A DNA stretch of 64,000 bases from Cytophagales bacterium (GCA_025359125.1 JANYHI010000034.1:4063-68062), one strand, 5' to 3'. Positions 25,200 to 45,432 are shown, counted from the stretch's first letter. Notes: generated from the letters alone by a model not told the origin. Made by a program: numbers and translations.

Positions 25200-25211
25200 A
25201 TGATGTTTCTT

Positions 25212-25780
25212 TTATCTTAATTCAGCCGCTAAAACGGTGATAGCTTTTGTTTTTATTTTTTCTAAATCTATGATTGGCATGTTCGTTTTTTTTGCGAGAT
25301 CATCCCATTGACGCATTTTTTTTGCCAGCTCGAATAAAGAATCTTGTTCAAAATTTACACCTCTGATTCACTCATTTTGCCACCTTGAAATTCGAGTGTT
25401 GCTTTACTAGCAGCCGACAATTTTTTATAATAGTCTGGATTTTTACATGTTAGGTATCGTTTTGCTTGTACATGGTTTTCAACAAGCCTGGCAACCTTTT
25501 CAGGGAATCCCTTTTCGCGTAAAAAATCGGCACCAATTTTTTCGTGGCTTTTTGTACCAAAGCCGCCCATATTATTTTCTTTATTTCTACTCACACAAAT
25601 ATGTCCAATATCATGAAAAAATGCCGCTAAAATAACTTCATCATCATATCCGTTCTCTTCTGCTAGTTGTGCTGTCTGCGACATATGTTCAATCTGCGAT
25701 ACAGGCTCGCCAATGTAATCTTCGTTTCCAAATCTCTTATAGAGTTCAAATATCTCATCTACGATTATTGACGGATTCAT
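25212..25780 (-). pseudogene. PhnZ-like HD-domain protein of phosphonate clusters, interrupted by a frameshift at about 25355
   Basis: The 141-aa ORF (25355-25780) has YIGE..SQIEH, FFHDIGH and HVQAKRYL, then ends ...QGGKMSESEV*. The family C-terminus (NFEQDSLFELAKKMRQWDDLAKK...) continues in the -1 frame at 25212-25355. Confidence 0.7.
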
Positions 25781-25920
25781 TTTTGTTTTAAAATTAATGG
25801 CATGAAGGTAAATTCAAATGGTTCGCTATTAGCTACTCGCAGGTTAAGAAATGATTAATTCATTCCACTCAGTATTGAAATAGCAAATATTATAATCTAC
25901 TTGAATCAAATTGAAATGAT

Positions 25921-26604
25921 ATGATAGACTTAGTGGTTTTTGATTTGGCTGGAACAACTGTAAAAGAAAATTTTGATGTGCAGCGCACACTACAAAGTTC
26001 ATTTTTGAAAGTAGGATTAGAAATTACCATTGAACAGGCTAATAAAGTAATGGGTATTCCTAAGCCAATTGCCATTCGCCAGTTGCTGAATTTGGTAAAG
26101 TATGATTCTATTACCGATGATTTTATTCACTCTATTCATGTTGATTTTGTAAAAGACATGATCGTGTTCTACCAGCACGATAAAACTGTTGAAGAAAATG
26201 AAGGAGTGACCGAGACATTTAAAAAGCTAAAAGAGAAGGGGGTAAAGATTGTGGTTGATACCGGCTTTGATCGACCTATTGTAAATGCATTGCTAGCGCG
26301 ATTGAACTGGCTGGAAAATAAGTTAATTGATGCGAGCGTTACGAGCGATGAAGTTGCTCATGGACGGCCTTACCCCGATTTAATTTTTAAGGCAATGGAG
26401 TTGGTGGGCGTAGCCGATGTAAAAAGAGTGGCAAAAGTAGGCGATACCATTTCTGATCTTCGCGAGGGGACAGCAGCAGGATGTGGTTTGGTTGTTGGGA
26501 TTACTTCCGGAGCTTTTACAAAAGAGCAATTGGCAAAAGAATTACCAACTCATTTGATTGCCAACATCCCTGAAATCATCCCGATTTTGGGTTTGGACGA
26601 ATAA
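25921..26604 (+). CDS. Phosphonatase-like (PhnX-like) HAD hydrolase
   Basis: HAD motif I in the phosphonatase-specific DxAGT form (VVFDLAGTTV). Motif IV is KVGDTISDL. Divergent from the PhnZ-like gene. Confidence 0.8.
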   Translation: MIDLVVFDLAGTTVKENFDVQRTLQSSFLKVGLEITIEQANKVMGIPKPIAIRQLLNLVKYDSITDDFIHSIHVDFVKDMIVFYQHDKTVEENEGVTETFKKLKEKGVKIVVDTGFDRPIVNALLARLNWLENKLIDASVTSDEVAHGRPYPDLIFKAMELVGVADVKRVAKVGDTISDLREGTAAGCGLVVGITSGAFTKEQLAKELPTHLIANIPEIIPILGLDE

Positions 26605-26671
26605 AAGTCTTTTAGAGGTTTTTTTAATTTTACTAAATTATTAACTTCATGTTAAATATGCTTAACATGAG

Positions 26672-27262
26672 ATGAGGCAGATATTTTTTATCGTTGTGTT
26701 GGTACAAAGCTTAGGAGGATTTTGCCAAGAGTTAATTTGGGAATCGGGTGTGCTGATTACCAAAAACAATGAAGTTCTTACTGGCTCGCTCGTATACCAC
26801 GCAGCCCATGATGCCGTGCTTTTGAAGCATAACGAAAAAGTAGATTTCTATCCTGCTCACAAAATCCAGTCGTTGAGATTTTATGATTCTAAAGCAGAAA
26901 TCAATCGTCAGTTTGTATCATTTGAAAAGAATGAATTTTTTTCGGCCAATGCGTTAGTAGAAATTGTTATTAACGGTTCGGTTAAAATCATCAGGCGCCT
27001 CAAGAGCAGAATAGATGAGTTAGGCCGCGCAAATGATGCCAACGATTTTGAGTATTACATTCTCGCGAACGCAAAGATTGTTCGTCTTGAAAAATTCAAA
27101 GCAAAGATTTTACCGATATTATTAGAAGCACATTCTTTCGAAATGAAGAATTTTATAGAGCAGGAAAGCATTGATCTCAACACGAAAGTTGCTGCATTTT
27201 CTCTTATTAAAGAACATAATAGATTAAATACTAAGCCGACAGCAATAGCGGCAATCCGCTAG
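26672..27262 (+). CDS. Hypothetical secreted protein
   Basis: 196 aa with a signal peptide (FFIVVLVQSLGGFCQ). No recognisable motif. Confidence 0.45.
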   Translation: MRQIFFIVVLVQSLGGFCQELIWESGVLITKNNEVLTGSLVYHAAHDAVLLKHNEKVDFYPAHKIQSLRFYDSKAEINRQFVSFEKNEFFSANALVEIVINGSVKIIRRLKSRIDELGRANDANDFEYYILANAKIVRLEKFKAKILPILLEAHSFEMKNFIEQESIDLNTKVAAFSLIKEHNRLNTKPTAIAAIR

Positions 27263-28557
27263 CCTTTAATTTCTTTGCTCCAGTGTTTGTGCTTGAAATG
27301 GAAATAGATCATCGAGCCGATAATCAAAAATGTTCCTGTAAAAGACACAATGTATCCGCCTGAAAGGAAAAAGTTAAGCCAACTTAATTTAGCATATCCA
27401 AATTCTTTGAAGAATAGCACGCCAACGCTACCCAAGTATCCAAACGAATCGGCTACGTACATGATAAATCCAACAGTGCCTGCGTATTGAAATGCTGCAA
27501 TCAAACGGTCGAAGAAAATACTATTGAAGGGAATATAGCCCAAGTACAACCCGAGTCCGATTAATGTCATCCAAATCGGGGCGGCAATCAGTGCATGTTG
27601 AAATAAATAGTTGGCAACCCCAATCAAAATCATTCCGATGGCAATAATAACATGATTGACCATCAATGCTCGCTTGTTATTTTTAATCAGCATCAAGCTA
27701 CCCATTACAAAAAGTACGGCAAAGGAGACTGGCACTTCTGTTTTTGTATAAATGGAAGGATCGTTGCCCATGTTCAGCGACTTCCAAATTTCAGCAGAGA
27801 AGTTATCTCTAAAATCGCGGAATGCGGTTAGCAATACATAGGCTAAAACAAATAAAATAATTCCTGGAAGGAAGGTAGAAGTGAATTTTTTCCTCTCTTC
27901 ATTATTCATGGGCAGCCGCTTGGTGCGCAGCTGCTCATCAAGTGGAGAGGGTGGGGGAAGTTGATTAAGTAGGTATAAAAAAATTAGCAAGGGAAGAAAG
28001 AATATGCAGGAGGCAGCAAACGGCATCCAATATTCCGACACGCCCCAATCTCGAATCAGGTATCCGCCTACCGATCGGCAGAGGCCCGCAGAGAAAATGA
28101 AACTGACAGAAAGCGAGGCACCCAACACTTCGGTCATGCGCCTTCCTTCTAGGTAGCCAAATACCATACCCCACACCATGCCTAGCGGCAAGCCATTGAA
28201 AAAAAGAAAAATAATATTGTATGGCGCTGGTACTAGAGCGAATAATATCCAGGCTAATCCTGCAACAGACACCATGATTAAAATTCCGATTCCACGCGAG
28301 TGTGCTTTTAACTCAGAGATAATTTTAATGCCAATAAATTTCGATAGCGCGTACCCAATCACCTGAAATGTAACCAGCCACACTTTATAACTAATGCCGG
28401 CAAATGCCAACCCCTCAAAGGTGGCCGCTGCAAAAGTTTTGCGGAAGGCGTAAACACAAGTATAAAGGCAAAAAGCAGCTAGCGATGCGTAGAGGGTAAA
28501 CCAAACAGGATGCGTTAGCTCAAGCCAAGATGTGATTTTAGATTTCGACTTAGTCAA
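27259..28557 (-). CDS. Polytopic membrane transporter (MFS-like, DUF5690-like by recollection)
   Basis: 432 aa, hydrophobic throughout (about 12 segments by eye). TTG start overlaps the stop of the upstream PHP gene (TTGA). Confidence 0.65.
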   Translation of the reverse strand: MTKSKSKITSWLELTHPVWFTLYASLAAFCLYTCVYAFRKTFAAATFEGLAFAGISYKVWLVTFQVIGYALSKFIGIKIISELKAHSRGIGILIMVSVAGLAWILFALVPAPYNIIFLFFNGLPLGMVWGMVFGYLEGRRMTEVLGASLSVSFIFSAGLCRSVGGYLIRDWGVSEYWMPFAASCIFFLPLLIFLYLLNQLPPPSPLDEQLRTKRLPMNNEERKKFTSTFLPGIILFVLAYVLLTAFRDFRDNFSAEIWKSLNMGNDPSIYTKTEVPVSFAVLFVMGSLMLIKNNKRALMVNHVIIAIGMILIGVANYLFQHALIAAPIWMTLIGLGLYLGYIPFNSIFFDRLIAAFQYAGTVGFIMYVADSFGYLGSVGVLFFKEFGYAKLSWLNFFLSGGYIVSFTGTFLIIGSMIYFHFKHKHWSKEIKG

Positions 28558-29399
28558 AATAGTATTCCATTTTGTTTAAAGTTAAACGCTTTCCACTCAC
28601 CTTCGTGCAAAAAGTGTAATTTTTTAAAACCGATATGCAGCAATAATTTTGCTGTCTCTTCAAACTGATTGACCAAATCATCTGCGTGGTGTGCATCAGA
28701 GCTTAATGTAATGGGAATCCCTTCTTTTAAAATCAATTCTAATATCCATGGACTTGGGTAGGTGGTGGTGGTTTTCTTTTGGTAGATACCTCTTGTGTTA
28801 ACCTCTACGATGGCTCCTGATTTTTTAATTTGAGAGAGCGTTTCATTCACTTGAGTTTGATACCATGCATCCGTTTCAAGAAAGAATTTATTTTCATGAT
28901 TTTGGATTTTCATTTTATCTAAATGGCCGACAACAGAAGGACATGACTTTTCAATCATTTGTCTGGTTAACTCGAAGTAGCGAACGAAAGCAGCCTTGTA
29001 ACTATTTTTAAAAATAGTCTCTAATCCATTTAAAAAAACAGCGTGAGTTCCATCGATTTCCCATGGTTTTCCATCCGCGAAAGCGTCTATAAAATGAATG
29101 GAGCCAATTGTATAATCGAGTCGATTGTTGAATTGGTTGGGCGAAATGCTGCCAGGAACAAAATCAATTTCCAATCCAGCGTAAATTTCTATTGAGGAAC
29201 TAGCTTTTAATTCGGTAATAGTTTTTAAATAAGTATCGAGATCGACAGATTTCATACACCAGTTGCAATCAAAAGGAACAGGCGCGTGCGAAGAGAAGCC
29301 TAGAATTTTTACCTCCAACTCGGTCGCCTTATTTATGTGTTCAGTAAAAGTACTTTTACCATCACAAAAATCAGTATGCGTATGAAAGTTTGCCCACAT
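28554..29399 (-). CDS. PHP-family phosphoesterase (HisJ/histidinol-phosphatase-like)
   Basis: N-terminal metal motif WANFHTHTDFCDGKS. Later GHLD and SSDAHH motifs. 281 aa. Confidence 0.8.
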   Translation of the reverse strand: MWANFHTHTDFCDGKSTFTEHINKATELEVKILGFSSHAPVPFDCNWCMKSVDLDTYLKTITELKASSSIEIYAGLEIDFVPGSISPNQFNNRLDYTIGSIHFIDAFADGKPWEIDGTHAVFLNGLETIFKNSYKAAFVRYFELTRQMIEKSCPSVVGHLDKMKIQNHENKFFLETDAWYQTQVNETLSQIKKSGAIVEVNTRGIYQKKTTTTYPSPWILELILKEGIPITLSSDAHHADDLVNQFEETAKLLLHIGFKKLHFLHEGEWKAFNFKQNGILF

Positions 29400-29444
29400 T
29401 TTTTTAGATTCTAGTTCAGCATTACTTCTCTAAAAAATTTATGT

Positions 29445-30602
29445 TTATAAGTTATATATTTTATCAATACTATGTTTTGAATAACCTGCCGATGTTGTCA
29501 TTCCTTTTCCGCCAATAGCCGTGCGAATATGAATTTTATTTTCTAGATCAATTTCAACAATATCTTTTTCACTATGTTGGGCATAAAATCCTGACCAACT
29601 TGTTGCCACACGATTTACCTCAAAGTTTACAATTCTGCCGGCCTCTTGTAGTATCAGTTGATTGATGTATTCATTCTGCAAAAACCCTAAATCTTCAGCT
29701 TGTTGCGCACTCGCATACTCGTGCGAATCGCCAATGATAATGGAGCCGTCAATTGCTTTTTTAAATAAAATGTGAATTCCCCATTTCTTTAACTCTTGCA
29801 AATGCGCTGGCGTTTTTATTTTTGGAAATGATTTACACTCTTCAAATGATTCGTATCTACGAATTGTAAGCCCTGTTAAAATATTTCCTTCCAACGCCAC
29901 GTTTGGCATGGCTACCGTTCTCAGCATGTGTAGTTTGCTAACCACTATTCCACTTTCGCTGAAAAGATTATTAAATAAGAGTTTAAATTCAGTACCACTG
30001 CAAATAATCGCTTTATCTGCTGTAAATTTTTCATGAAGGTGGCTGGTAACAATCACCTTTTCGCCTGCCACTTCGCAGCCAACAATTGCTGTATCAAATT
30101 GAATGGTAATGTTTTTATATTTTTTTAGTAAGTATTGGTGAAGTCGAAAAATTAATTTTTCTGGTTCAGCACTTAACTCTTGCGGAAAATAGAGTGCTTC
30201 TTTGCAGTATTCGCTTTTTAAAGAGGGCCATTTATTTATGCACTGGTTGGTAGTAAGAAGTTCAGCTTCATAACCTCGCCCATCCATAATTGTCTTTAAC
30301 TCGTGAATTAATTGTTGCTCATCAAGATCGGAGGCAATATAAACGCTGCCATTATTTCTTATGGAAATATCAAATTCAGATTGAATAGAGTTGTACAGTT
30401 CGTTACCGCTAGCGCCATATCCAAACCAATTAGTACTCATCCCCGAAGGAACGATTTGCCCGAAATTCCTAACCGATGCTTGCATTGGAAAGCGATCCTT
30501 TTCTAGCAGCAAAACTTTTTTATTCAGCTTGGCGGCATGATAGGCATGAAACGTACCGAGAATTCCGGCTCCTACAATAAGTAGATCAAAATGTTTGTTC
30601 AT
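29445..30602 (-). CDS. FAD-dependent (DAO-family) oxidoreductase, TIGR03364-like phosphonate-associated clade
   Basis: FDLLIVGAGILGTFHAY Rossmann motif and ASVRNFGQ motif. Context includes a PhnX-like hydrolase. Confidence 0.75.
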   Translation of the reverse strand: MNKHFDLLIVGAGILGTFHAYHAAKLNKKVLLLEKDRFPMQASVRNFGQIVPSGMSTNWFGYGASGNELYNSIQSEFDISIRNNGSVYIASDLDEQQLIHELKTIMDGRGYEAELLTTNQCINKWPSLKSEYCKEALYFPQELSAEPEKLIFRLHQYLLKKYKNITIQFDTAIVGCEVAGEKVIVTSHLHEKFTADKAIICSGTEFKLLFNNLFSESGIVVSKLHMLRTVAMPNVALEGNILTGLTIRRYESFEECKSFPKIKTPAHLQELKKWGIHILFKKAIDGSIIIGDSHEYASAQQAEDLGFLQNEYINQLILQEAGRIVNFEVNRVATSWSGFYAQHSEKDIVEIDLENKIHIRTAIGGKGMTTSAGYSKHSIDKIYNL

Positions 30603-30646
30603 TAGACTTTATATTGTTAGTTGATAAACAATTATTTTTTTAATAT

Positions 30647-31222
30647 CTATTTTATGGTGAGAAAATAAAAAACAAGCATGATCACTTTTCGTTTTGATAG
30701 GTTGACAGGATAATGTGGTTTAGAAGCGTCAAAATAAATGGAATCGCCCTCGCGCAAAGTTATTTTTTCATCTTCAATATAATAGTCACAATCACCAGCA
30801 ATTATATGTTTGAATTCAAAACCATCTGTTGTGGTAGGCTTACTTTTAGCTTTGGGTTTTATGGTTAATAAAACAGTTTCCATTGTGCAACCCGGTATGG
30901 TTTGAGAGAAAATAGATAGGTAGTCAAATCCGGGTCTGTCTTCTTTTTTTAGGTGCCGGTAATCTTTTCTTTTAATGTGGAAGTATGTTTGATTTTTTCG
31001 CACGGATAGGGTCTCGAAAAAATCAGTTGGTTTAATCTCTAATGCCGCCAGTAAAGTTAAAAATACAGGAAGCGAAGGAACTGTTCTAGAGTTTTCAATT
31101 TTTGAAAGTAGGCCTTTGGTTAAGTTAGTTCGCTCACTCAACATTTGTAGTGTAACTCCCCGCTCTATTCGCAGTGCCTTAATTCTTTTTGCCATCTGGC
31201 CAATAAGTTCTTCTTGTATCAT
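30647..31222 (-). CDS. XRE-family HTH regulator with C-terminal cupin domain
   Basis: HTH region VTLQMLSERTNLTKGLLSKIENSRTVPSL, followed by a beta-rich cupin-like C-terminus. First gene of the minus-strand operon. Confidence 0.8.
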   Translation of the reverse strand: MIQEELIGQMAKRIKALRIERGVTLQMLSERTNLTKGLLSKIENSRTVPSLPVFLTLLAALEIKPTDFFETLSVRKNQTYFHIKRKDYRHLKKEDRPGFDYLSIFSQTIPGCTMETVLLTIKPKAKSKPTTTDGFEFKHIIAGDCDYYIEDEKITLREGDSIYFDASKPHYPVNLSKRKVIMLVFYFLTIK

Positions 31223-31472
31223 TCAACGGGGTTTACTATTTGTCAACTTTTGGTTGAGCAGGCAAGCTACATGGCAATTGTTAACGTATTGTTATTTCAA
31301 ACTTATGTTTTATGCTACTAAATTCTATGATTTCTTTAGAAGAGTTTATGGCAGCATTACCATTATTTTTTTAACGCAGCTAATCTTAACCGATCGTTAA
31401 CCTGCATCTAAACTCCACGTCAACTCTTTCCTCAATCTTTGGGCAAGTGAAAAACTAAACCTAAAAACTATT

Positions 31473-34400
31473 ATGCGTGAAACTTTACTAACCCAAAACA
31501 GCAAGCCGAAATTGATTTTGCAAATCATCTTCGCTTTGTTGGTAAGCTTGGCAGGCACAACCGCCATGGCGCAGTATTCAGTATCCGGCAAAGTAACTTC
31601 CGGAGAAGATCAAAGTCCATTGCCAGGTGTGAATATCTTGGTTAAAGGAACTTCTAACGGCACCATTTCTGATGCGAATGGTTCGTTTGCAATTAATACC
31701 AACTCTGCGTCTGATATATTAATTTTTTCTTTTGTTGGTTTCACCACACAAGAAGTAGCTATTAATAATCGCTCTTCATTAGACGTGGTATTGGCTTCCG
31801 ATGCCAAGCAGTTAAGCGAAGTGGTGGTGACTGCCTTGGGTATTGAAAAAGACAAAGGAAAAATAGGCTATGCAATACAAGAGGTGAAGGGTCAAGATTT
31901 GACAAAAGCACGTGAGCCAAATGCTATTAATTCATTGGCTGGCAAGGTCGCTGGCTTAAACATTGGCGCTTCTTCTGAAATTTTAGGGTCACCAAATATT
32001 TCGTTGCGAGGCAGGACCCCCTTTTTTGTAGTTGATGGGGTTCCATTGGTTTCAGATACATGGAATATCAGCCCTGATGATATTGAAAGTTACACTGTAT
32101 TGAAAGGTCCAGCTGCTGCCGCTCTGTACGGGTCTCGAGGTATTGATGGTGCAATTATTATTACTACCAAACGAGGTTCAAAAGATAAGCGTGGGTTTAG
32201 TATTGATTATAATTCTTCCACGATGGCTGAGAACACTTTCTTGACAATACCAAAAGTACAAGATGAATATGGCCCTGGGGACCATGGACGTTATGCATAT
32301 AAGGACGGCAAGACCGGACTGAATGATGCTGACTATGATGTTTGGGGACCTAAGTTTAACGGCCAATTGCTTCCTCAATATGACGGAGAGTACACACCTG
32401 GCACTTCATATACCACCACCTTTCCAAGTGGGGGAGTACCTTGGGTCGGTAACATCAAACCCACACCTTGGATTGCGCGTGGTAAGGATAATCTCAATCG
32501 GTTTTTGGAAGCCGGATTACTTTCAACAAACAACGTGGCTATTTCGGCTAGTGGAGATAAGTATGATCTACGGTTTTCATATACTCACACCTATCAGAAA
32601 GGACAAGTTCCTAATACGAAGTTAAATAGCGATAACTTTAATTTATCTGCCGGATTTGATTTTTCAGACAAAGTTCGGTTAGAGTCGAATATCAACTACA
32701 ACCGCCAATACACGCCCAATATTCCGGACGTACAATATGGGCCGAACAGTATGATTTATAATATCACTATTTGGGGTGCTGCAGACTGGAACATTGACGA
32801 CATGAAAGACTACTGGGAGAAAGGCAAAGAAGGCATACAACAAAAATATGAGGAACATACACGGTACAACAATCCCTACTTTTTAACGCAGGAATGGTTG
32901 CGAGGCCATAACAAAACTGACATTTATGGAAACCTTGCCCTTAAGTACAAGGTTACAAAAGACTTGGAATTAATGGCACGTACTTCAGTTACTACTTACG
33001 ATATATTAAGAAGTGAAAAATTCCCTTACTCTGCTACCGTTTATGGACGTGAGCAAGCAAAGGGCGATTACCGGGAAGATCGCAGGAATTTGTTCGAGAA
33101 CAACACCGATGTATTGGCCACATATAATAAAAAATTGACCCCGGATATTTCGCTCACTGCATCAGCGGGTGGTAATATCCGTACCTATGATTATCAATCT
33201 GCGTTCATCACAACAGACTACTTGAATGTTCCGGCATCATCGCTTACCCCAGGAGCATATTCGTTTGATAATTCATTGAATCCAATCAAAGCTTATAATT
33301 ATAACGCACCCATGTCAGTATTAAGTGCTTACTGGTTTGTGGATGCCTCGTACAAAAACTGGATCAATCTTTCTTTGACAGGGCGTTGGGATAAAAATTC
33401 AACCCTGCCAGCAGCGAAGAATTTAGGTTTCTATCCTTCTGCCTCGCTTAGTTTGGTTCTCTCTGAGGCATTAAAATTGCCAAAAGTAATTTCGTCTTTA
33501 AAGGTGCGCAGTTCATATGCACAAGTTAATAAGGGAAATACCTTCTCAAATATCGGCCCCACACCGAGTGCTTCTTTTCCGCTAGGATATGGTTCGACCT
33601 ATAATTCCCCTTATGATGGTCCGGACTATTCCAATTCTGCTGTGTATAGTACTCCTTTGGTGTATGATAATAAGCCAGGGGCGTATTATCCAAATACACT
33701 TACCAACAGCAATCTTAATACCTATCAGACAACAGGTACCGAACTCGGTTTAGACGTTCGTTTCTTATCGAATCGGATTGGATTAGATGTTACATACTTT
33801 AACAACATTGACGGTCCACGTATTTCTGCACAAGCATTACCTTCTTCAACAGGTTACAACGGCTATTTAACCAATGGTGAAAAAACCCAACGTGAGGGTG
33901 TGGAGATCACCATCAACGCAAGACCTGTCGACAAGGGAGATTTCAAATGGAATGTTCTGCTCAACTGGTCTACGTTCAAAGAAACCTGGAAGGAATTTGC
34001 ACCTGGGCAAACTCAAAAAGGGTTCTATAAGATCGGAGATCGTGTGGATGGTTACTACGCTGGCGCATTTTACAAAACACCTGATGGAAAGCTGATCAAT
34101 GATGCAGGAGGCAGGCCCATTCGCACTAACGTTGCTCAATTCCTTGGCAACCTTAATCCTGATTGGTCATGGGGTATCACCAATAAATTCACTTATAAGA
34201 ATTGGGGATTAACGGTGCAGTTTGATGGCCGTGTGGGTGGATCTATTGTTAACTACATCCAGCGTCAAACATTCCGCGGTGGACGGCATATAGAAACTGT
34301 TCAAGGAGCAATGGGCATTGCCCGGGCGCAAGATGAGCAAGGGATAAAGTCTTGGGTTGGTCAAGGCGTTGTAATTAGTAACGGACAGAGCATCAAGTAT

Positions 34401-34754
34401 GACCCTGTGACCGGTGCCATCACTAATTACAGCGAACTTCAATTTGCGCCAAATACAACAGCCACATTTTTGCAGGATTACATCAGTCGCTACTATGCAG
34501 CCGAGGAAGCAAACCTCATGAGTCGCAGCTACGCAAAACTCCGCGAAGTAACACTTTCCTATAATGTTCCTATTGGTTTATTGAAAAGCTCCTTCATAAG
34601 AGCGGCCTCTGTGTCGCTAGTTGGTAGAAACCTACTTTACTTTGCAGATAAGAGTGATATGGACATTGATCAGTTTGTTGCCCCTGATGGTTACGCCAGT
34701 CTGCAATCTCCTTCTTTAAGACGTTATGGGTTTAACATTAACCTCACTTTTTAA
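31473..34754 (+). CDS. SusC/RagA-family TonB-dependent outer-membrane transporter
   Basis: Signal peptide, carboxypeptidase-regulatory-like domain (YSVSGKVTSGEDQSPLPGVNILVKGTSNGTISDANGSF), plug, 1093 aa, C-terminal ...YGFNINLTF. A SusD-like gene follows 10 nt later. Confidence 0.9.
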   Translation: MRETLLTQNSKPKLILQIIFALLVSLAGTTAMAQYSVSGKVTSGEDQSPLPGVNILVKGTSNGTISDANGSFAINTNSASDILIFSFVGFTTQEVAINNRSSLDVVLASDAKQLSEVVVTALGIEKDKGKIGYAIQEVKGQDLTKAREPNAINSLAGKVAGLNIGASSEILGSPNISLRGRTPFFVVDGVPLVSDTWNISPDDIESYTVLKGPAAAALYGSRGIDGAIIITTKRGSKDKRGFSIDYNSSTMAENTFLTIPKVQDEYGPGDHGRYAYKDGKTGLNDADYDVWGPKFNGQLLPQYDGEYTPGTSYTTTFPSGGVPWVGNIKPTPWIARGKDNLNRFLEAGLLSTNNVAISASGDKYDLRFSYTHTYQKGQVPNTKLNSDNFNLSAGFDFSDKVRLESNINYNRQYTPNIPDVQYGPNSMIYNITIWGAADWNIDDMKDYWEKGKEGIQQKYEEHTRYNNPYFLTQEWLRGHNKTDIYGNLALKYKVTKDLELMARTSVTTYDILRSEKFPYSATVYGREQAKGDYREDRRNLFENNTDVLATYNKKLTPDISLTASAGGNIRTYDYQSAFITTDYLNVPASSLTPGAYSFDNSLNPIKAYNYNAPMSVLSAYWFVDASYKNWINLSLTGRWDKNSTLPAAKNLGFYPSASLSLVLSEALKLPKVISSLKVRSSYAQVNKGNTFSNIGPTPSASFPLGYGSTYNSPYDGPDYSNSAVYSTPLVYDNKPGAYYPNTLTNSNLNTYQTTGTELGLDVRFLSNRIGLDVTYFNNIDGPRISAQALPSSTGYNGYLTNGEKTQREGVEITINARPVDKGDFKWNVLLNWSTFKETWKEFAPGQTQKGFYKIGDRVDGYYAGAFYKTPDGKLINDAGGRPIRTNVAQFLGNLNPDWSWGITNKFTYKNWGLTVQFDGRVGGSIVNYIQRQTFRGGRHIETVQGAMGIARAQDEQGIKSWVGQGVVISNGQSIKYDPVTGAITNYSELQFAPNTTATFLQDYISRYYAAEEANLMSRSYAKLREVTLSYNVPIGLLKSSFIRAASVSLVGRNLLYFADKSDMDIDQFVAPDGYASLQSPSLRRYGFNINLTF

Positions 34755-34764
34755 TCATTAGAGT

Positions 34765-36303
34765 ATGAAAAATTTAATAAAACCTATACTAATTATTTTA
34801 CTTGCATTCGGCACCTATGGCTGCCGTGATTTCGATGTATTGCCTAATAATCCAAATCGCCCAGCGGCTGTTCCGCCTTCATTAATTCTTCGGGGGATAG
34901 AAAGCGATCTAAATCAAGGCCCTTGGAGTTTGGAACACCGCCAAAACCAATTTTGGTGCTGCAACTACAACTACTACGGAACTAACGAGTATTGGGTAAA
35001 AGCAGACTTGAATTTTCTCACGCTGAAAAATGTGCTGAAAATGGAAGAAGCCGCTAAGGCAAGTTCAAAAGCGACACCCTATGGTGCGCTTGCGAAATAT
35101 TTTAAGGCGGTTTTTTACGCCCGAATGACCCAGAAAGTAGGCGACCTTCCTTTGACGGATGCGTTGAAAGGGCTAGACAAAAAAGATCCAGCTTACAATA
35201 CTCAAAAGGAGGTCTATATTCAGATTCTAAAATGGTTGAATGAATCAAATGCAGACCTTAAGGCTTTGATTGCTAGCAATGATATCTCGTTGGATGGTGA
35301 TTTTTTGTATGGAAATAACTTGACTGCGTGGCGCAAAGCGGTGAATACATTTACGCTGCGTACACTTATTAGCTTAAGTAAGAAAGACGCTGATCCGGAT
35401 TTGAACATCAAAACAAAGTTTGCTGCAATTATCAACAATCCAGCGGAGTATCCGATCATGACTTCGAACAGCGATAACATGAACTATGTTTATAATGGTA
35501 CAACGCAACTCTATCCAACTAATCCAGGCAACAAAGGATTTGATAAAGGACGTTATAATATGGCTGAAACATATGTGAAGGGACTAACTACATTGAACGA
35601 TCCGCGCGTATTTGTAGTGTGCAATCCTGCGAAAGCCAAATTAGCAAGCGGTCTTTCAGGAACCGATTTTGCTGCTTACGTTGGAGCGCCTGCTGGACAG
35701 AGCCTAGACGATATGTCTTCCCAAGCTGGATTAGGTAATTTTTCTTATTCCAACCAGAAAAGATATTATGGTTCCTTAGCTGGCCCTGAGCCTAGTGTTC
35801 TATTGTCATACTCGGAACTATGTTTCAATATTGCTGAGGGTATCAACCGTGGATGGGCAGCCGGAAACGCAGATACTTACTATCAAAATGGTATTAAAGC
35901 ATCCATGTCATTTTATGGAATTACGGATGGAGCTTCGATCACTGTAACTAATCAAGACGAAGTAGCTATTGGTACAGTAACGGCATCAGTAACAAATTAT
36001 TTAGCCCAACCCTCAGTAGCTTATGCAGGAAACAATGCTGCTGGACTAAATCAAATACTTACCCAGAAATATCTGGCATTTTTTCAAAACTCAGGCCAAG
36101 AAGCATATTTCAACTACCGCAGAACAGGCGTGCCGGCTTTTAATGCAGGGCCTGGTACTGGAAATACCGGAGTAATCCCAAGACGTTGGTTGTACCCGTC
36201 TGATGAATCGTTTTACAACGTAACCAATTTAAATGCTGCGTTGAACAACCAGTTTGGTTCAACGGTCGATGATGTAAACAAAGATCTCTGGATCGTCAAA
36301 TAA
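34765..36303 (+). CDS. SusD/RagB-family outer-membrane lipoprotein
   Basis: Lipoprotein signal (LLAFGTYGC). 512 aa. Lies immediately downstream of SusC. Confidence 0.8.
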   Translation: MKNLIKPILIILLAFGTYGCRDFDVLPNNPNRPAAVPPSLILRGIESDLNQGPWSLEHRQNQFWCCNYNYYGTNEYWVKADLNFLTLKNVLKMEEAAKASSKATPYGALAKYFKAVFYARMTQKVGDLPLTDALKGLDKKDPAYNTQKEVYIQILKWLNESNADLKALIASNDISLDGDFLYGNNLTAWRKAVNTFTLRTLISLSKKDADPDLNIKTKFAAIINNPAEYPIMTSNSDNMNYVYNGTTQLYPTNPGNKGFDKGRYNMAETYVKGLTTLNDPRVFVVCNPAKAKLASGLSGTDFAAYVGAPAGQSLDDMSSQAGLGNFSYSNQKRYYGSLAGPEPSVLLSYSELCFNIAEGINRGWAAGNADTYYQNGIKASMSFYGITDGASITVTNQDEVAIGTVTASVTNYLAQPSVAYAGNNAAGLNQILTQKYLAFFQNSGQEAYFNYRRTGVPAFNAGPGTGNTGVIPRRWLYPSDESFYNVTNLNAALNNQFGSTVDDVNKDLWIVK

Positions 36304-36330
36304 ATTTTCGCCTAGTGTTTTTAATCAATT

Positions 36331-36360
36331 ATCCGGGGCCTTGTTGCCCCGGATTTTTTT
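36331..36360 (+). terminator. Rho-independent terminator after the SusC/SusD pair
   Basis: Perfect 9-bp stem atccggggc / gccccggat (36331-36339 / 36346-36354) with a 6-nt loop and a T-run through 36360. Confidence 0.8.
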
Positions 36361-36366
36361 AATCGA

Positions 36367-37458
36367 ATGAATATGAAAATAAAACTTATCATTTTCTTCT
36401 CAATCATTTCTTGGTCATTGTCTCAGGCGCAAAAAGCCAAAACCGAAAATGTAATTCTCATAACCTTAGATGGCATGCGCTGGCAAGAAGTTTTTAATGG
36501 AGCGGAGAAAAGATTGATGACTAAAAAATTTGTACAAGATTCTGCCGCCTTGTCAAATGCATTTTGGAACGAATCCTCAGTGGTTAGAAGAGAAAAACTA
36601 ATGCCCTTCTTCTGGAATACCATTGCCAAACAAGGCCAATTGTATGGGAATAGACACCTTGGAAATAAAGTAAATACATCCAATAAAATGTGGTTTTCTT
36701 ATCCTGGCTATAATGAAATCTTATGCGGATTTGCTGATGATGAAAGAATTAACAGTAATGACCCCACCGATAATCCAAATAAAAATATTTTAGAATTTCT
36801 GCAGGCGCAGAAAGAATTTTCTGGCAAGGTTGCCGCATTTACTTCTTGGGAAACTTTCCCATGTATAATCAATACCAAACGAAGTGGTGTGCCGGTAAAT
36901 GCCGGATTGATGAAAGCTGAAAAAAACCCTACCGAATCAGAAAAATTATTGAATGAGTTGATGTTTCAGCAACCGAATATTACGGGTGGCACTCGCGTGG
37001 ATGCATTGACATTTTATTGCGGGTTGGAGTATTTGAAGAAAAATAAACCCCGCGTACTGTTTTTTTCCTTTGATGAAACAGACCACTGGGCGCATGAAGG
37101 AGAATATGATAAATATCTTCGAGCGGCCAATTACACAGACGAGTTTATTAAAATACTTTGGAGTTGGCTTCAATCGCAACCTAAATACAAGAATAAAACT
37201 ACACTTGTCATTACTACCGATCATGGTCGAGGAAATGTGAATGACACGGACTGGCGCCACCACGGAAGCAAAATGCTTTTTGCGGATGAAATCTGGTTTG
37301 CATTTTTAGGGCCCGATACCCGCGCCATGGGCGAAGTAAGCGTACAGCAACAACTCTATCAAAGTCAGATAGCGCAGACCATCGCAACACTTTTAAAAGT
37401 AAATTACATAGGCAATAAACCAACAGGCGAAAGGGTGTCAACGGCTATTATCAAATAA
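36367..37458 (+). CDS. Secreted alkaline-phosphatase-superfamily phosphoesterase (NPP/phosphodiesterase-like)
   Basis: Signal peptide. Metal-ligand motifs ITLDGMRW, DETDHWAHEG and TTDHGRG. Confidence 0.7.
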   Translation: MNMKIKLIIFFSIISWSLSQAQKAKTENVILITLDGMRWQEVFNGAEKRLMTKKFVQDSAALSNAFWNESSVVRREKLMPFFWNTIAKQGQLYGNRHLGNKVNTSNKMWFSYPGYNEILCGFADDERINSNDPTDNPNKNILEFLQAQKEFSGKVAAFTSWETFPCIINTKRSGVPVNAGLMKAEKNPTESEKLLNELMFQQPNITGGTRVDALTFYCGLEYLKKNKPRVLFFSFDETDHWAHEGEYDKYLRAANYTDEFIKILWSWLQSQPKYKNKTTLVITTDHGRGNVNDTDWRHHGSKMLFADEIWFAFLGPDTRAMGEVSVQQQLYQSQIAQTIATLLKVNYIGNKPTGERVSTAIIK

Positions 37459-37486
37459 TACCATCTAATATTAAATATATAAAATA

Positions 37487-40273
37487 ATGCGATTTTTTAC
37501 ACTCATGCTATTAGTTACTGCTTTTTCATGTACAAAGAAGGCAGCAACCGAACAAAAAATCTGGACAGCGTCTGCACCGGCTCTCGATCGGTATACTCAA
37601 ATTGACAGAACTGAAGAAACAGTTTTGCCGAACGGAAGAATTATTACGCCAGCAGGTAAACAAATTACAGTAGCGCCACATCCTTTTGGGTTGGCTTTAA
37701 GCCCTGATGGAAAAACAATTATTACCTCTAATTCAGGTGTTGGCCCATTTTCGATTTCTATTATTTCTAATTACGAATTGGATTCGCCTGTGATAAAGCA
37801 AATTCCTGAAACGCTAAACCAAGAGAAGGGTTTGTTGGATGCAGCCTTTATGGGATTGGCTATTTCTCCAGACAATCAGAAAGTTTATGTGGCAGGTGGC
37901 CAACAAAATAAGATTTATATTTTTGACGTCACCACAAATAAAAAATTAGGAGAGATAGACTGTAATAAATCGTTTGATGGAACGGATTATAATGACGGGT
38001 ACATTGGAGACTTGGTGTTAAACAGAGATGGCACACGACTTTACGCGGTAGATCAAATTGGTTTTAGAATGATCATTATTGACACTAAGACCAATCAGGT
38101 AATTCAAAATATAAAAACGGGTCGCTACCCATTTGGCATGGCACTATCGCCCGATGAAAAGACAGTTTATGTAGCGAATGTTGGCATGTTTGAATACAGC
38201 TACATCAAGAGTTTAGATAAGAAGAAACTAAATGAAACGGCCGCAAAATACCCAACCTCTGCGTATGGTTCAAAAGAAATGAGAGATGGGGTAAAAAATG
38301 ATTCCATCGAATTTGCAGGTTTGGGTGATCCAAATGTTCCTGAATCTTTTTCGGTGTGGGCAATAGATGTGAGTAAAAAAGAGGCGGTAGTTATTTCAAA
38401 AGTTAAAACAGGAATTTTAGTGGGCGAAGAAGTGGAAGGCATTGCGGCTGTAGGCGGATCGAGTCCTAACTCAATAGTAGCAACCGATGAGTTTGTTTAC
38501 GTGAGCAATGGAAATAATGATAATATTTCAGTGATTGATCCGAAGAAAAATATAGTGGTGAAGAGCATAGAGTTAAAACTAGATGAACGACTAAAAAATT
38601 TGAAGGGGATTATTCCATTTGGGGTAACTATCTCGCCCGATCAAAAAAGATTGTATGTGGCCGAAGCGGGTATCAATGCAGTGGCGGTCATCGATCTTTC
38701 ATCGCATGAAGTAGTGGGTCATATTCCTACCGGATGGTTTCCATCTAAGTTAAAAATAACTCCAGATGGTAAACAATTAGTTGTAACAAATGCAAAAGGC
38801 TTTGGCAGTGGCCCCAATGGTGGTAAAGATTTTAAGCCTCCGTTCGATCATCCCTATGCCAGTTACATTGGCGCATTGATGCAAGGCTGTGTGTCAATCA
38901 TGGATATACCTACAGATGAAAAATTGAAATTACTCACAGAAAAAGTAATTACTAATAATTTCTCTTTTAAAGAGATCACGTCAGCGAAAAGTGAGAATCC
39001 AATCCCCACTTTTCCGATGGCAAAAGAATCGCCCATCAAATACATTGTTTTTATCTCTAAAGAAAACAGAACCTATGATGAAGTATTCGGACAATTGAAA
39101 ACGGGAAAAGGAGATTCTGCTTTGGCTCATTATGGTGCAAACGTTTCTTTTACAAATAAGAGTAAGACCCTAAAAGTAGAGAAGGCAACTGTGATGCCGA
39201 ATCATTTGGCGCTGGCAGAACGATTTTCAATCAGTGATAATTTTTATGTTGATTCAGATGTTTCTGCAGATGGTCATGTATGGTTAACGAATACCTATCC
39301 GAATCAATGGATGGAGACACACCACCCCGCTTCTTATGGAGGTAAAAGAAATCAACGAGAAGAATCGAAGGCTCCTGGTAAATTTGGAATGACAGGGGCG
39401 GCAGGTGCAATTTTTCCTGAGTCGTACAACCAGGCGGGCTCGATGTGGGAACATTTAGAGCGGCACAATATTGAATTTTATAATTTCGGTTTTGGAGTGG
39501 AGTTTGATGCCGGAAGTTTTTCTGATTCTACTTTTAAATTTGGAGGAGTTCGGTATCTGGTAAATTACCCACTTCCAGGGCCATTGTATAGTCGTACTTC
39601 TCGTCAGTTTCCAACGTTTAATATGGCCATACCCGATCAATTTAGAGCAGATATTTTTATCAAAGAAATTACCGATAAATACATCGAAACAAAAAAACAA
39701 TTGCCTTCGGTGCTTACCCTCCAATTGTTGAACGATCATGGTGCGAGCGAAAGAGCCGCAGCCGGATTTCCATTTACTGAAAGCTACATGGCCGATAATG
39801 ATTTGGCACTGGGCAGAGTAGTGGAATTTTTAAGTCATTCGCCTTATTGGAAAAATATGATGATTGTGGTAACTGAAGATGATGCACAAGGAGGCCATGA
39901 CCACATTGATGCGCACAGAAGTATTTTGATGGTGCTTTCGCCCTACTCAAAAAAGAATTTTAACAGTCATCAACACTATAGCTTTGGCAGCATCTTTAAA
40001 ACGTTTTGGAATATACTTGGTACTTCCTATCTAAACCAATATGATTTTGGTACTACCGACTTGTCAGATTGTTTTACTACCCAACCAGATTTTACTCCTT
40101 ACAATGCATTGTCAGTTGATCCGAGAATTTTTGATCCAACCAAAGCGCTAACACCCCTACATGAAAAATTTGATTGGAAGGCATTTATAAACTCACCTGA
40201 ATTAGATGATTCTGAAGACATGAAAGAAAACTCAAAAAGAAAAGATGATGGTAGGAAGAGTGTGAATCACTAG
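37487..40273 (+). CDS. Fusion of a YVTN-type beta-propeller with a phosphoesterase-family (PLC/AcpA-like) domain
   Basis: Repeated blades (LSPDGKTIIT, ISPDNQKVYVA, LNRDGTRLYAV, LSPDEKTVYVA, ISPDQKRLYVA, ITPDGKQLVV). C-terminal IVFISKENRTYDEVFG ... TEDDAQGGHDHIDAHRS. Confidence 0.75.
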   Translation: MRFFTLMLLVTAFSCTKKAATEQKIWTASAPALDRYTQIDRTEETVLPNGRIITPAGKQITVAPHPFGLALSPDGKTIITSNSGVGPFSISIISNYELDSPVIKQIPETLNQEKGLLDAAFMGLAISPDNQKVYVAGGQQNKIYIFDVTTNKKLGEIDCNKSFDGTDYNDGYIGDLVLNRDGTRLYAVDQIGFRMIIIDTKTNQVIQNIKTGRYPFGMALSPDEKTVYVANVGMFEYSYIKSLDKKKLNETAAKYPTSAYGSKEMRDGVKNDSIEFAGLGDPNVPESFSVWAIDVSKKEAVVISKVKTGILVGEEVEGIAAVGGSSPNSIVATDEFVYVSNGNNDNISVIDPKKNIVVKSIELKLDERLKNLKGIIPFGVTISPDQKRLYVAEAGINAVAVIDLSSHEVVGHIPTGWFPSKLKITPDGKQLVVTNAKGFGSGPNGGKDFKPPFDHPYASYIGALMQGCVSIMDIPTDEKLKLLTEKVITNNFSFKEITSAKSENPIPTFPMAKESPIKYIVFISKENRTYDEVFGQLKTGKGDSALAHYGANVSFTNKSKTLKVEKATVMPNHLALAERFSISDNFYVDSDVSADGHVWLTNTYPNQWMETHHPASYGGKRNQREESKAPGKFGMTGAAGAIFPESYNQAGSMWEHLERHNIEFYNFGFGVEFDAGSFSDSTFKFGGVRYLVNYPLPGPLYSRTSRQFPTFNMAIPDQFRADIFIKEITDKYIETKKQLPSVLTLQLLNDHGASERAAAGFPFTESYMADNDLALGRVVEFLSHSPYWKNMMIVVTEDDAQGGHDHIDAHRSILMVLSPYSKKNFNSHQHYSFGSIFKTFWNILGTSYLNQYDFGTTDLSDCFTTQPDFTPYNALSVDPRIFDPTKALTPLHEKFDWKAFINSPELDDSEDMKENSKRKDDGRKSVNH

Positions 40274-40397
40274 CGTTAGCTGAACGGAAACTAAGAGGTA
40301 TTTTCTATTCTCAATAGAGTAATCTTCGGGAGAGAGATGATTTCAATAAAATTCGTGCTATCAAAAAAATAAGTAATCTTTGCACTTAATTTTACAT

Positions 40398-40428
40398 CGG
40401 TTGGTGATTCGCCAGCCGTTTTTTTTTT
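40398..40428 (+). terminator. Hairpin plus T10 (terminator of the upstream gene, or a leader attenuator of the downstream MBL gene)
   Basis: Stem cggttgg / ccagccg (40398-40404 / 40412-40418, one G-U pair) followed by ten T. Lies 125 nt after the stop at 40273 and 15 nt before the ATG at 40443. Confidence 0.55.
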
Positions 40429-40442
40429 GAAGCCAATAGAAA

Positions 40443-41282
40443 ATGACCTTACAAGTAGCATCCCTTAATTCTGGCAGCAATGGCAATTGCTATTACATTG
40501 GCAATAAAAATGAAGCGGTTTTTATTGATGCTGGAATTTCTTGTCGCGAAACGGAACGCAGGATGAAGCGATTAGCGCTTTCTATAAAAAAAGTGAAAGC
40601 GATATTTATTACGCATGAACATGCAGACCACATCAACGGACTAACCAAGCTTGTTAAGAAATTAAAAATTCCTGTATACATTTCAGCGTCCAGCAGAAAA
40701 TCTTCAGCGCTCAACTGGACGGAGGGAATAGCGGTAAATTTTAAAGCCTACGAACCAATAATTATAGGTGATCTTACCATAACGGCATCACCCAAATTTC
40801 ATGATGCGAGTGACCCATACAGTTTTGTTGTATCGCATAAGGGTATTCATGTGGGTGTTTTTACAGATGCCGGCAGAGTGTGCGATGATTTAATCAAGAA
40901 TTTTAAAATTTGCCACGCTGCTTTTTTAGAATCTAACTACGATGAAGAAATGTTAGAGCAGGGCGATTATCCGTTGTCATTAAAAAACAGAATACGCGGA
41001 GGAGAGGGCCATATTTCAAATAAAGAGGCGTTGCAACTTTTCTTGGCTCACCGCCCGCCATTTATGACGCATCTTTTCTTGGCGCATCTTTCTAAAAATA
41101 ATAATACGCCAGAAATTGCTGAGGCTTTATTTAAAAGCGTGGCAGGTGGAACACAAATTATAGTAGCACCTAGAAGCGGAGAAACAGAAGTGTATGATAT
41201 TGATGGAGTACCGGTTGCAAATACCGTTTCAAATTCTGCCTACAAAAATAAGTCTATTAATCAGCTTACTCTTTTTAGTTAG
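40443..41282 (+). CDS. MBL-fold metallo-hydrolase
   Basis: HxHxDH motif (ITHEHADHINGL). 279 aa. Confidence 0.8.
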   Translation: MTLQVASLNSGSNGNCYYIGNKNEAVFIDAGISCRETERRMKRLALSIKKVKAIFITHEHADHINGLTKLVKKLKIPVYISASSRKSSALNWTEGIAVNFKAYEPIIIGDLTITASPKFHDASDPYSFVVSHKGIHVGVFTDAGRVCDDLIKNFKICHAAFLESNYDEEMLEQGDYPLSLKNRIRGGEGHISNKEALQLFLAHRPPFMTHLFLAHLSKNNNTPEIAEALFKSVAGGTQIIVAPRSGETEVYDIDGVPVANTVSNSAYKNKSINQLTLFS

Positions 41283-44818: not shown

Positions 44819-44841
44819 TAGTTTTCGGTTCGAAATATCAT

Positions 44842-45425: not shown

Positions 45426-45432
45426 TAAATTG

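Follow-up and report, generated by a model that had tools for sequence, protein, structure and literature searches.

A candidate PusCD-type aminophosphonate utilisation locus in a Cytophagales bacterium and its relatives among Bacteroidota

A 64,000-nt stretch of DNA from a Cytophagales bacterium (GCA_025359125.1, JANYHI010000034.1:4063-68062), hereafter the window, carries at 25.2-40.3 kb a SusC/SusD (SusCD) pair that stands back-to-back with genes for phosphonate catabolism and is followed by two exported phosphoesterases. The original prediction, made from the sequence, held that these genes form one system for the use of organophosphorus compounds. Comparative genomics supported this in several orders, and a single SusCD orthogroup proved to be linked with three alternative gene sets for the catabolism of 2-aminoethylphosphonate (AEP), in several orders outside Flavobacterium.

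Layout of the locus and its conservation across Bacteroidota

The genes of the window were listed as open reading frames (ORFs) and searched with Pfam and NCBIfam profiles against the cut-offs of each family. The ORFs and both profile collections bore out the genes named in the original prediction and their positions. The features of the locus are as follows.

25212-25780 (569 nt), minus strand: PhnZ-like HD-domain phosphonate oxygenase, disrupted (TIGR03276, Pfam HD)
25921-26604, plus strand: PhnX-like HAD phosphonatase of the TIGR03351 type (TIGR03351, TIGR01422)
26672-27262, plus strand: 196-aa protein with a signal peptide, u196 (hydrophobic N-terminus)
27259-28557, minus strand: predicted DUF5690 inner-membrane transporter with 12 transmembrane segments (PF18943, 550 bits)
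28554-29399, minus strand: PHP-domain phosphoesterase of the HisJ (histidinol-phosphatase) family (TIGR01856, 136.9 bits against a cut-off of 90.2)
29445-30602, minus strand: FAD-dependent aminophosphonate oxidase, PbfD type (TIGR03364, 328.3 bits against 285.1)
30647-31222, minus strand: XRE-family helix-turn-helix and cupin regulator (HTH_3/HTH_19 and Cupin_2; weakly PuuR-like)
31223-31472, no strand: divergent control region between regulator and SusC
31231-31247, no strand: candidate operator GTTTACTATTTGTCAAC (family consensus GTTTAC-N5-GTAAAC, a palindrome)
31433-31441, plus strand: candidate Bacteroidota -7 promoter element for SusC, CAATCTTTG (conserved 8-mer)
31473-34754, plus strand: SusC/RagA-type TonB-dependent transporter (TIGR04056, 502 bits against 368; TIGR04057, 48.2 against 46.2)
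34765-36303, plus strand: SusD-like lipoprotein lid of the PF12771/PF12741 subfamily (PF12771, 236.8 bits)
36331-36354, plus strand: terminator-like hairpin between SusD and the alkaline-phosphatase-superfamily gene (9-bp stem, 7 GC pairs, T7 run)
36367-37458, plus strand: probable periplasmic alkaline-phosphatase-superfamily enzyme of 363 aa with NPP-like metal-site motifs (weak Phosphodiest, Metalloenzyme and Sulfatase matches)
37487-40273, plus strand: lipoprotein of 928 aa with a YVTN beta-propeller (about residues 45-440) and a phospholipase C (PLC)/AcpA-type phosphoesterase domain (about 515-860), here propeller-PLC (PF04185, TIGR02276)
40398-40418, plus strand: terminator-like hairpin at the right end of the plus-strand unit (9-bp stem, 6 GC pairs, T10 run)

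Orthologous loci were collected by scanning one genome per GTDB species with an alignment of 15 SusD orthologues. Homologues of SusD numbered more than 2,200, and all locus counts given here refer to the best 80 species-level loci of the SusD orthogroup (SusD identity 48-88%; designated by L numbers), which split into 44 Cytophagales loci and 36 loci of a distant clade with 48-53% SusD identity. Full flanks of 10 kb on both sides were present in 35 of the 80; other counts were made within the available flank. The proteins of the window were mapped onto the 80 loci, neighbouring ORFs were clustered, and the recurrent clusters were annotated. The source taxa were Cyclobacteriaceae, Chryseolinea, Ohtaekwangia, Saprospiraceae, Lewinellaceae, Prolixibacteraceae, Lentimicrobiaceae, other Bacteroidales, Chitinophagales, and Runella. 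L045, a contig of 3.8 kb (JANOJH010000850.1) that bears the label 'MAG: Bdellovibrio sp.', encoded Cytophagales-type SusC, SusD, and propeller-PLC proteins with 60-76% identity and is probably mis-binned.

At least one gene of the AEP C-P pathway lay near SusCD in 62 of the 80 loci, and in 31 of the 35 with full flanks; because it recurs in so many species-level genomes, the arrangement is far beyond chance. Phosphoesterases of any kind were present in 57/80 loci, and an exported phosphoesterase accompanied the C-P genes in 47/80. The synteny was thus conserved in relatives across orders, and when glycoside hydrolases (GH) were looked for beside orthologous SusCD pairs, GH1 was the only recurrent family (6/80 loci).

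The catabolic genes differed between groups. In Cytophagales, the gene order was essentially that of the window, with a catabolic set of PbfD, PhnX-like, and PhnZ-like genes. Prolixibacteraceae, other Bacteroidales, and their relatives carried PhnW (496 bits), PhnX (289 bits), and PbfA (702 bits), all above the NCBIfam cut-offs; PbfA is the 1-hydroxy-AEP ammonia-lyase. In the distant clade, SusCD was embedded in a row of genes that all point the same way, PbfA-u179-SusC-SusD-PhnX-AepP-like-PhnW; the gaps measured 9-130 nt, and an esterase was often missing altogether. The inner-membrane slot of this clade was filled by an AepP-like permease of the GlpT family or by DUF5690 instead, and the AepP-like major facilitator superfamily (MFS) protein lay between PhnX and PhnW in 10 distant-clade loci. 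Because it outlived replacement of the pathway, the inner-membrane transporter, and the regulator, the association tracks the substrate AEP and not one particular gene set.

Two variations of the distant array were also observed. A 179-aa exported protein, u179, was encoded directly upstream of SusC in 20 of the 36 distant-clade loci (L056-L085; e.g. L078:6120-6659); it matched no Pfam or NCBIfam family and was unrelated to the Cytophagales u196 (hhalign probability 0.1%). In L061, L076, and L085, a GH1 gene lay downstream of PhnX-PhnW in the same direction, and a saccharopine-dehydrogenase-like gene stood between SusD and PhnX, which hints that some variants handle glycosylated AEP compounds.

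Components of the locus

The PbfD-type oxidase and the PhnX-like gene lie 2.8 kb apart, and this pairing recurred in 29 Cytophagales loci. Together with the score above the family cut-off, the pairing places the FAD protein in the PbfD family, and aminophosphonate oxidase activity is predicted. That TIGR03364 and TIGR03351 genes are syntenic in phosphonate catabolism, as the original prediction had said, is stated in PMC10590968. The PhnX-like protein gave 207.5 bits with TIGR03351, a near miss of the cut-off of 218.9, and 114 bits with TIGR01422. Its DxAGT nucleophile motif (FDLAGTT) and its cap-domain Lys (MGIPKP) aligned with FDWAGT and MGLAKK of PhnX proteins positive for TIGR01422. In Bacillus cereus PhnX, the DxAGT nucleophile, in which Ala replaces the second Asp, and the cap-domain Schiff-base Lys are the hallmarks of the mechanism. 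Judged by the alignment, the PhnX-like protein keeps both hallmarks of a phosphonoacetaldehyde hydrolase.

The PhnZ-like gene was present as predicted, though not as a single intact ORF. A 1-nt deletion near 25359 split its reading frame into ORFs at 25355-25780 (141 aa) and 25212-25316 (34 aa); the 141-aa fragment matched Pfam HD and scored 176.6 bits with TIGR03276 against a cut-off of 214.6. The truncated product has no RQWDD segment, which holds the metal ligand D161 in the PhnZ structure. The gene was whole (189 aa) on two independent and otherwise near-identical Logan metagenome contigs (L001, L003), and the same split was found in the NCBI metagenome-assembled genome (MAG) GCA_043725905.1 (contig L002), which was identical to the window across 24765-41054. 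The deletion site (25355-25362) lies outside any homopolymer run, and the deletion could be a real strain-level pseudogene or an assembly error common to both sequences. PhnZ-like genes occurred in 23 of the 44 Cytophagales loci. The oxidative AEP pathway of PhnY and PhnZ calls for an intact PhnZ and a PhnY 2-oxoglutarate dioxygenase; the locus has no intact PhnZ in this assembly, and no PhnY was seen in it. Because no PhnY-like cluster recurred in any of the 80 loci, the PhnZ-like protein probably acts on pre-formed 1-hydroxy-AEP.

The remaining proteins of this side were examined likewise. The DUF5690 protein has 12 hydrophobic segments in a 6+6 layout with a central loop. It had no MFS match in Pfam and no sequence match in the PDB, its hhalign probability against the AepP-like MFS proteins was 3%, and no function for DUF5690 was found in the literature searched. 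DUF5690 and the AepP-like GlpT-family MFS proteins alternate in one operon slot across loci; since an AepP-like permease takes the same place, we infer that DUF5690 is an aminophosphonate permease and would import AEP. The PHP-domain protein matched the histidinol phosphatases 2yxo and 3dcp in the PDB, and a HisJ-type PHP gene was present in 16/44 Cytophagales loci. The PbfD, PhnX-like, PHP, and PhnZ-like proteins have no export signal, which places them in the cytoplasm. The 196-aa protein matched no Pfam or NCBIfam family and had homologues in the same slot in 14 Cytophagales loci. A second type of PHP-domain protein (about 365 aa, with a signal peptide) was encoded in five distant-clade loci, among them L058:3005-4105, L067:4740-5828, and L071:11813-12901, and was distinct from the HisJ-type protein of the window (hhalign probability 6%).

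SusC contains CarbopepD_reg_2 and Plug domains and no STN signalling domain. The scores of both proteins and the gap of 10 nt between their genes identify them as a SusC/RagA transporter with its SusD lid. In SusD, the lipoprotein signal has an invariant Cys20 with acidic residues after it, which fits a lid exposed at the cell surface. The hairpin after SusD may act in attenuation, giving more SusCD than esterase transcript.

The two enzymes encoded downstream had been predicted to be secreted phosphoesterases; their export signals point to the periplasm instead. The 363-aa enzyme has a signal peptidase I (SPI) signal peptide, and in the propeller-PLC the invariant lipoprotein Cys15 precedes Thr-Lys-Lys and an acidic surface-export motif is lacking, so that the latter protein is probably anchored facing the periplasm. 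Because of these signals both esterases are probably periplasmic, and this agrees with the proposal of a 2026 preprint for Pus1 (bioRxiv 10.64898/2026.09.03.749221). In the 363-aa enzyme, D35, S111, D239/H243, and D285-H286 are invariant, and the CxPxR motif of sulfatases is absent. It scored 37 bits with PF01663 against a cut-off of 23, and a PDB profile search gave only a weak match to Xac NPP (E=0.019). Its AlphaFold2 model had a confident core (pLDDT 77.6); Foldseek matched it about equally to sulfatases, LtaS, YejM, and NPP with TM-scores of 0.45-0.6. These are generic matches of the alkaline phosphatase superfamily, and transfer of a specific function by Foldseek was dropped.

The propeller-PLC scored 32.5 bits with PF04185 against a cut-off of 23, though no single stretch passed alone, and contained TIGR02276 repeats. 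Its profile matched Francisella AcpA (2d1g, E=1.3e-4), and ENRTYDEVFG and TEDDAQGGHDH, motifs of the ENRSFD and DExGGxxDH types, were invariant in 20 propeller-PLC sequences. Relatives are named 'bifunctional YncE family protein/alkaline phosphatase family protein' at NCBI. The assignment to the PLC/AcpA family is based on the Pfam score, the motifs, the AcpA match, and the NCBI name, since the AlphaFold model of the domain is unusable. A second TonB-dependent receptor (699 aa, heme/hemoglobin-receptor-like and not of the SusC type) was encoded downstream of the propeller-PLC in 14 Cytophagales and 5 distant loci (L006-L033; e.g. L052:17679-19778) and is absent from the window.

The control region shared by the two units is exactly 250 nt long, as predicted, and was compared in an alignment of 15 orthologous intergenic regions. 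The XRE-cupin gene adjoins SusC in 15 of the 44 Cytophagales loci. A GTTTAC-N5-GTAAAC palindrome was found 8-12 nt from the start codon of the XRE-cupin gene in 14 of the 15 regulator-bearing loci and in only 1 of 16 intergenic regions without that regulator, and its strict form had only 10 occurrences in 1.29 Mb of locus DNA. The palindrome is a good operator candidate for the XRE-cupin protein, and a local regulator of this kind suggests substrate sensing. Upstream of SusC, a CAAyCTTTG element was found whose 8-mer AACCTTTG was conserved at a matching position in 10/15 orthologous regions. The consensus of the Bacteroidota -7 box is TAnnTTTG, and by this resemblance the element is a putative SusC promoter. 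No convincing Pho box was seen in the intergenic region, the best match to the E. coli-type model used having 7 mismatches in 18. A sigma-70 promoter scan, which is uninformative for Bacteroidota, gave 40 matches with 50 expected. No gene for an extracytoplasmic function (ECF) sigma or anti-sigma factor was found in the locus.

Possible regulatory features of another kind were observed in Chryseolinea-type loci. In six of them (L008, L016, L020, L021, L025, L026), the putative SusC promoter is separated from the start codon by a long leader, about 60-170 nt upstream of SusC, that is conserved and includes the hairpin AAACCAGGA...TCCTGGTTTAT, likewise conserved. This element is absent from the window and could be an attenuator or another RNA element. 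Some Chryseolinea loci have next to them genes for a response regulator of 227 aa (OmpR/PhoB-like) and a membrane protein of 224 aa (PAP2-like), downstream of the alkaline-phosphatase-superfamily gene in L016, L020, and L026 and upstream in L050; the response regulator may indicate a link to two-component, possibly Pho-type, control.

The genes on either side of the locus are unrelated to it and are not conserved beside orthologous SusCD, on the left Tex, a GMC oxidoreductase, and others, and on the right a metallo-beta-lactamase (MBL) hydrolase, an Omp85-like protein, GH65, PAP2, and MFS genes. The claim that the locus contains no glycoside hydrolase held inside 25.2-40.3 kb and is to be qualified by the non-conserved GH65 gene at 42797-44818, 2.5 kb downstream. 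This gene adjoins no orthologous SusCD pair. The GH65 and MBL genes were rejected as members of the locus, being not conserved and beyond the terminator-like hairpin. At 42797-48164, the plus strand carries a row of three genes, for the GH65 protein, whose N-terminus is signal-like, for a PAP2-domain protein of 464 aa, and for an MFS transporter; the row may be a separate small sugar or phosphate-ester unit. A 1140-aa fusion of B12-binding, MeaB GTPase, and methylmalonyl-CoA-mutase parts (IcmF-like; 7401-10823, minus strand) is unrelated to the locus.

Comparison with known systems and alternative explanations

SusCD pairs induced by phosphate limitation in Flavobacterium (PusCD), which the original prediction had named, are borne out by the literature. 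The further claim, that coupling of a SusCD importer to phosphonate genes had not been described, was mistaken, as Lidbury and colleagues had already reported it (2019, 2021, 2026). In Flavobacterium, the neighbourhoods of pusD4/5/6 contain phnX, dao, dgdA, and gpmI1 and are induced by depletion of inorganic phosphate (Pi) (Lidbury et al., 2019, bioRxiv 10.1101/719427), and the same group states that PusCD-like pairs co-localise with aminophosphonate-hydrolysing genes (bioRxiv 10.1101/719427; PMC8115612; bioRxiv 10.64898/2026.09.03.749221). Aminophosphonate-linked PusCD-like pairs have therefore been noted before, and none has been characterised. The supplementary tables of PMC8115612 held no usable entry on phosphonate-linked PusD forms, and no characterised TonB-dependent phosphonate importer or phosphonate-specific SusCD was found in the literature searched.

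A PusCD-type locus has a SusCD-like pair with phosphatases or phosphonatases rather than carbohydrate-active enzymes (CAZymes), and this is the case in the window and in most orthologous loci. The likeness to Flavobacterium PusCD4/5/6 extends to phosphoesterases, phnX, the 'dao' FAD oxidoreductase, inner-membrane transporters, and the lack of CAZymes, and further to the 'dgdA' class-III aminotransferase, which is of the family of PbfA, and to alkaline-phosphatase-superfamily genes annotated 'gpmI1/deoB'. Unlike PusCD4/5/6, the present clade is found in Cytophagales, Chitinophagales, and Bacteroidales, with no Flavobacteriales among the best 80 loci. With Pus1 and Pus2 of F. johnsoniae, which serve phosphatidylinositol and glycerophosphoinositol (GroPI), the locus would share the TonB-dependent import of a small organophosphorus head group by a SusCD-like pair, periplasmic PLC-type hydrolysis, and the lack of CAZymes. 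PusCD1 imports small organophosphates (GroPI, IP1), which are then hydrolysed in the periplasm (bioRxiv 10.64898/2026.09.03.749221). However, PusD1/2 are reported as pf07980+pf14322 whereas the SusD of the window is PF12771+PF12741; Pus1/2 are controlled by ECF sigma and anti-sigma factors whereas the window has an XRE-cupin protein and a SusC without STN; and the enzymes are PI-PLC, calcineurin-like, and PhoA proteins in Pus1/2 but a propeller-PLC/AcpA and an NPP-like alkaline-phosphatase-superfamily protein here. PusD1 recognises its ligand by Trp stacking on the inositol ring, and AEP has no such ring. A PusCD1/PusCD2 (Fjoh_4168/Fjoh_3250) orthologue was rejected on account of the different SusD Pfam families, regulators, and enzymes.

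On the cytoplasmic side, phosphonoacetaldehyde is the product when purified PbfD enzymes act on AEP and N-methyl-AEP as oxidases, and pbfD often has phnX as its only partner (Zangelmi et al., 2023, PMC10590968). The window resembles the pbfD2-phnX clusters of that study, with a TIGR03364 oxidase beside a PhnX-type hydrolase and no PhnW. The published clusters contain cytoplasmic enzymes with inner-membrane or ABC transporters only, and the main text of the paper has no mention of TonB or Bacteroidetes (PMC10590968). AepP is a proven AEP permease and was found both in a Bacteroidetes genome and in co-localisation with PhnWX (Murphy et al., 2021, PMC8316502); in place of AepP, AepXVW, or AepSTU the window has DUF5690, and the known Aep systems have no outer-membrane component. 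Finally, the adjacent SusC and SusD with their short gap, the lipoprotein lid, and the terminator-like hairpin after SusD are as in classical Sus systems and polysaccharide utilisation loci (PULs), but conserved glycoside hydrolases, surface glycan-binding proteins, and a hybrid two-component or ECF regulator are lacking, and no CAZyme stands beside SusCD within 25.2-40.3 kb.

We consider it reasonably probable that the window holds a PusCD-type aminophosphonate utilisation locus with the predicted ligand, substrates, DUF5690 function, and regulation. This judgement draws on what was observed above: the identities of the genes, their catalytic motifs and export signals, the conservation of synteny, and the co-occurrence of operator and regulator. 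Several points weigh against it. In four loci with full flanks (L024, L027, L062, L067), C-P genes are missing within 10 kb. This assembly has a frameshift in the PhnZ-like gene, a PhnY partner was not seen in the locus, and the PhnX-like score falls slightly short of the TIGR03351 cut-off. DUF5690 has no detectable sequence relation to MFS or AepP. The strong terminator-like hairpin parts SusD from the two esterase genes, so that their co-transcription is not assured. Among solved structures, sequence and structure searches gave no close characterised relative of the 363-aa enzyme, and the PLC-like domain was modelled poorly by AlphaFold2 (pLDDT < 50 for residues 499-928). AEP is moreover small (about 125 Da) and could cross porins, so that it is not obvious why a TonB-dependent importer should be needed.

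In another reading, the two units are separate neighbours. SusCD and the esterases would then scavenge, as Pus1/Pus2 are described to do, ordinary phosphate esters, be they head groups of phospholipids (glycerophosphoethanolamine) or pieces of nucleic acid, and the minus-strand operon would degrade AEP that enters otherwise; the shared place, and perhaps the shared regulator, would reflect phosphorus nutrition. The divergence of the units and the hairpin after SusD are consistent with this, as are the broad phosphodiesterase-type families of the esterases, whose specificity for phosphonates is undemonstrated. L024 and L027 keep SusCD and esterases without C-P genes within 10 kb, and the characterised PusCD1/2 handle phosphate esters. 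However, at least 12 distant-clade loci pair C-P genes with SusCD and have no esterase, the tight co-directional array of these loci, with SusCD flanked by PbfA and PhnX, is hard to explain if SusCD has no part in AEP catabolism, and the association persists where the entire catabolic route and the inner-membrane transporter have been exchanged. We regard separate functions as unlikely.

The locus might also be a glycan-type PUL variant for phosphonoglycans or AEP-decorated polymers, in which SusCD imports AEP-oligosaccharides, the esterases strip AEP, and glycoside hydrolases finish the degradation. SusCD pairs classically import oligosaccharides, and GH1 genes follow PhnW co-directionally in L061, L076, and L085 and lie near three Cytophagales loci. 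AEP is described as a common decoration of bacterial surface glycans (PMC6697681), and a GH65 gene lies 2.5 kb downstream in the window. Yet a conserved glycoside hydrolase is confined to 6/80 loci, the GH65 of the window lies beyond the terminator and two non-conserved genes and is missing from all orthologous loci, and many loci have no hydrolase besides the cytoplasmic AEP enzymes; a PUL variant is therefore rather improbable.

That the adjacency is meaningless, a matter of inheritance from a common ancestor and phylogenetic inertia, we hold to be hardly credible: related Cytophagales MAGs, nearly uniform in gene order, do supply most of the loci, but the association extends over Cytophagales, Saprospiraceae/Chitinophagales, Prolixibacteraceae, Lentimicrobiaceae, and Runella at 48-53% SusD identity, with gene order reshuffled and components replaced between groups, and the flanking genes outside the cluster vary from locus to locus.

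Proposed route for AEP and its meaning

For an aminophosphonate utilisation locus, the components suggest the following route. SusC/SusD would take AEP-type compounds at the cell surface, and TonB energy would drive their passage through the outer membrane. Candidate cargo would be free AEP, 1-hydroxy-AEP, and small AEP esters, e.g. deacylated phosphonolipid head groups; the existence of esterase-free loci suggests that recognition is of the AEP head group as such. Once in the periplasm, esters may be cut by the NPP-like enzyme and the membrane-anchored propeller/PLC-AcpA protein at the single P-O-C ester linkage between AEP and glycerol, ceramide, or sugar. Chemically, phosphonate monoesters are analogues of phosphodiesters, and PLC-type cleavage would thus give free AEP. 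The 12-segment DUF5690 protein would move AEP across the inner membrane, the PbfD-type FAD oxidase would convert AEP or N-methyl-AEP to phosphonoacetaldehyde, and the PhnX-like hydrolase would break the C-P bond, giving acetaldehyde and phosphate. The PhnZ-like protein of Cytophagales, where intact, may cleave 1-hydroxy-AEP, which PbfA would handle in the distant group. More speculatively, and with low confidence, the HisJ-type PHP phosphatase might act on phosphoethanolamine, the phosphate analogue of AEP, because histidinol phosphate is a substituted phosphoethanolamine. Expression of the locus probably responds to a small-molecule ligand through the XRE-cupin protein, which is predicted to bind GTTTAC-N5-GTAAAC.

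Phosphonates, chiefly AEP in lipids and glycans, make up a sizeable pool of organic phosphorus and nitrogen. To our knowledge, characterised AEP transporters all act at the inner membrane, and we know of no outer-membrane route in Gram-negative bacteria. The comparative result provides a concrete, testable candidate for outer-membrane AEP uptake, and offers, as working hypotheses, roles for DUF5690, the 363-aa alkaline-phosphatase-superfamily protein, and the 'bifunctional YncE/alkaline phosphatase' lipoproteins, three families so far uncharacterised. The locus is real, conserved, and functionally coherent, and is best filed with the aminophosphonate-linked PusCD-type subtype already noted. 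As the general idea has been published, this work contributes breadth and a sharper hypothesis and not a new concept; what it adds is the link of one SusCD orthogroup outside Flavobacterium to three gene sets, a candidate operator, and the family hypotheses.

We put forward only tentatively the joint proposal that this SusCD orthogroup is the first TonB-powered outer-membrane importer with specificity for free aminophosphonates (AEP, 1-hydroxy-AEP) or the esters of their head groups, that DUF5690 is a new family of inner-membrane permeases for aminophosphonates, and that the propeller-PLC is a phospholipase C dedicated to phosphonolipids, which are phosphonate monoesters. If true, the three would complete an envelope-spanning route by which non-Flavobacterium Bacteroidota of soils and freshwaters mine phosphonolipids. 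Bacteroidota are often without PstSABC and ABC-type organophosphorus transporters (bioRxiv 10.64898/2026.09.03.749221), and a SusCD importer linked with the breakdown of AEP would account for their ability to compete for the phosphonate pool.

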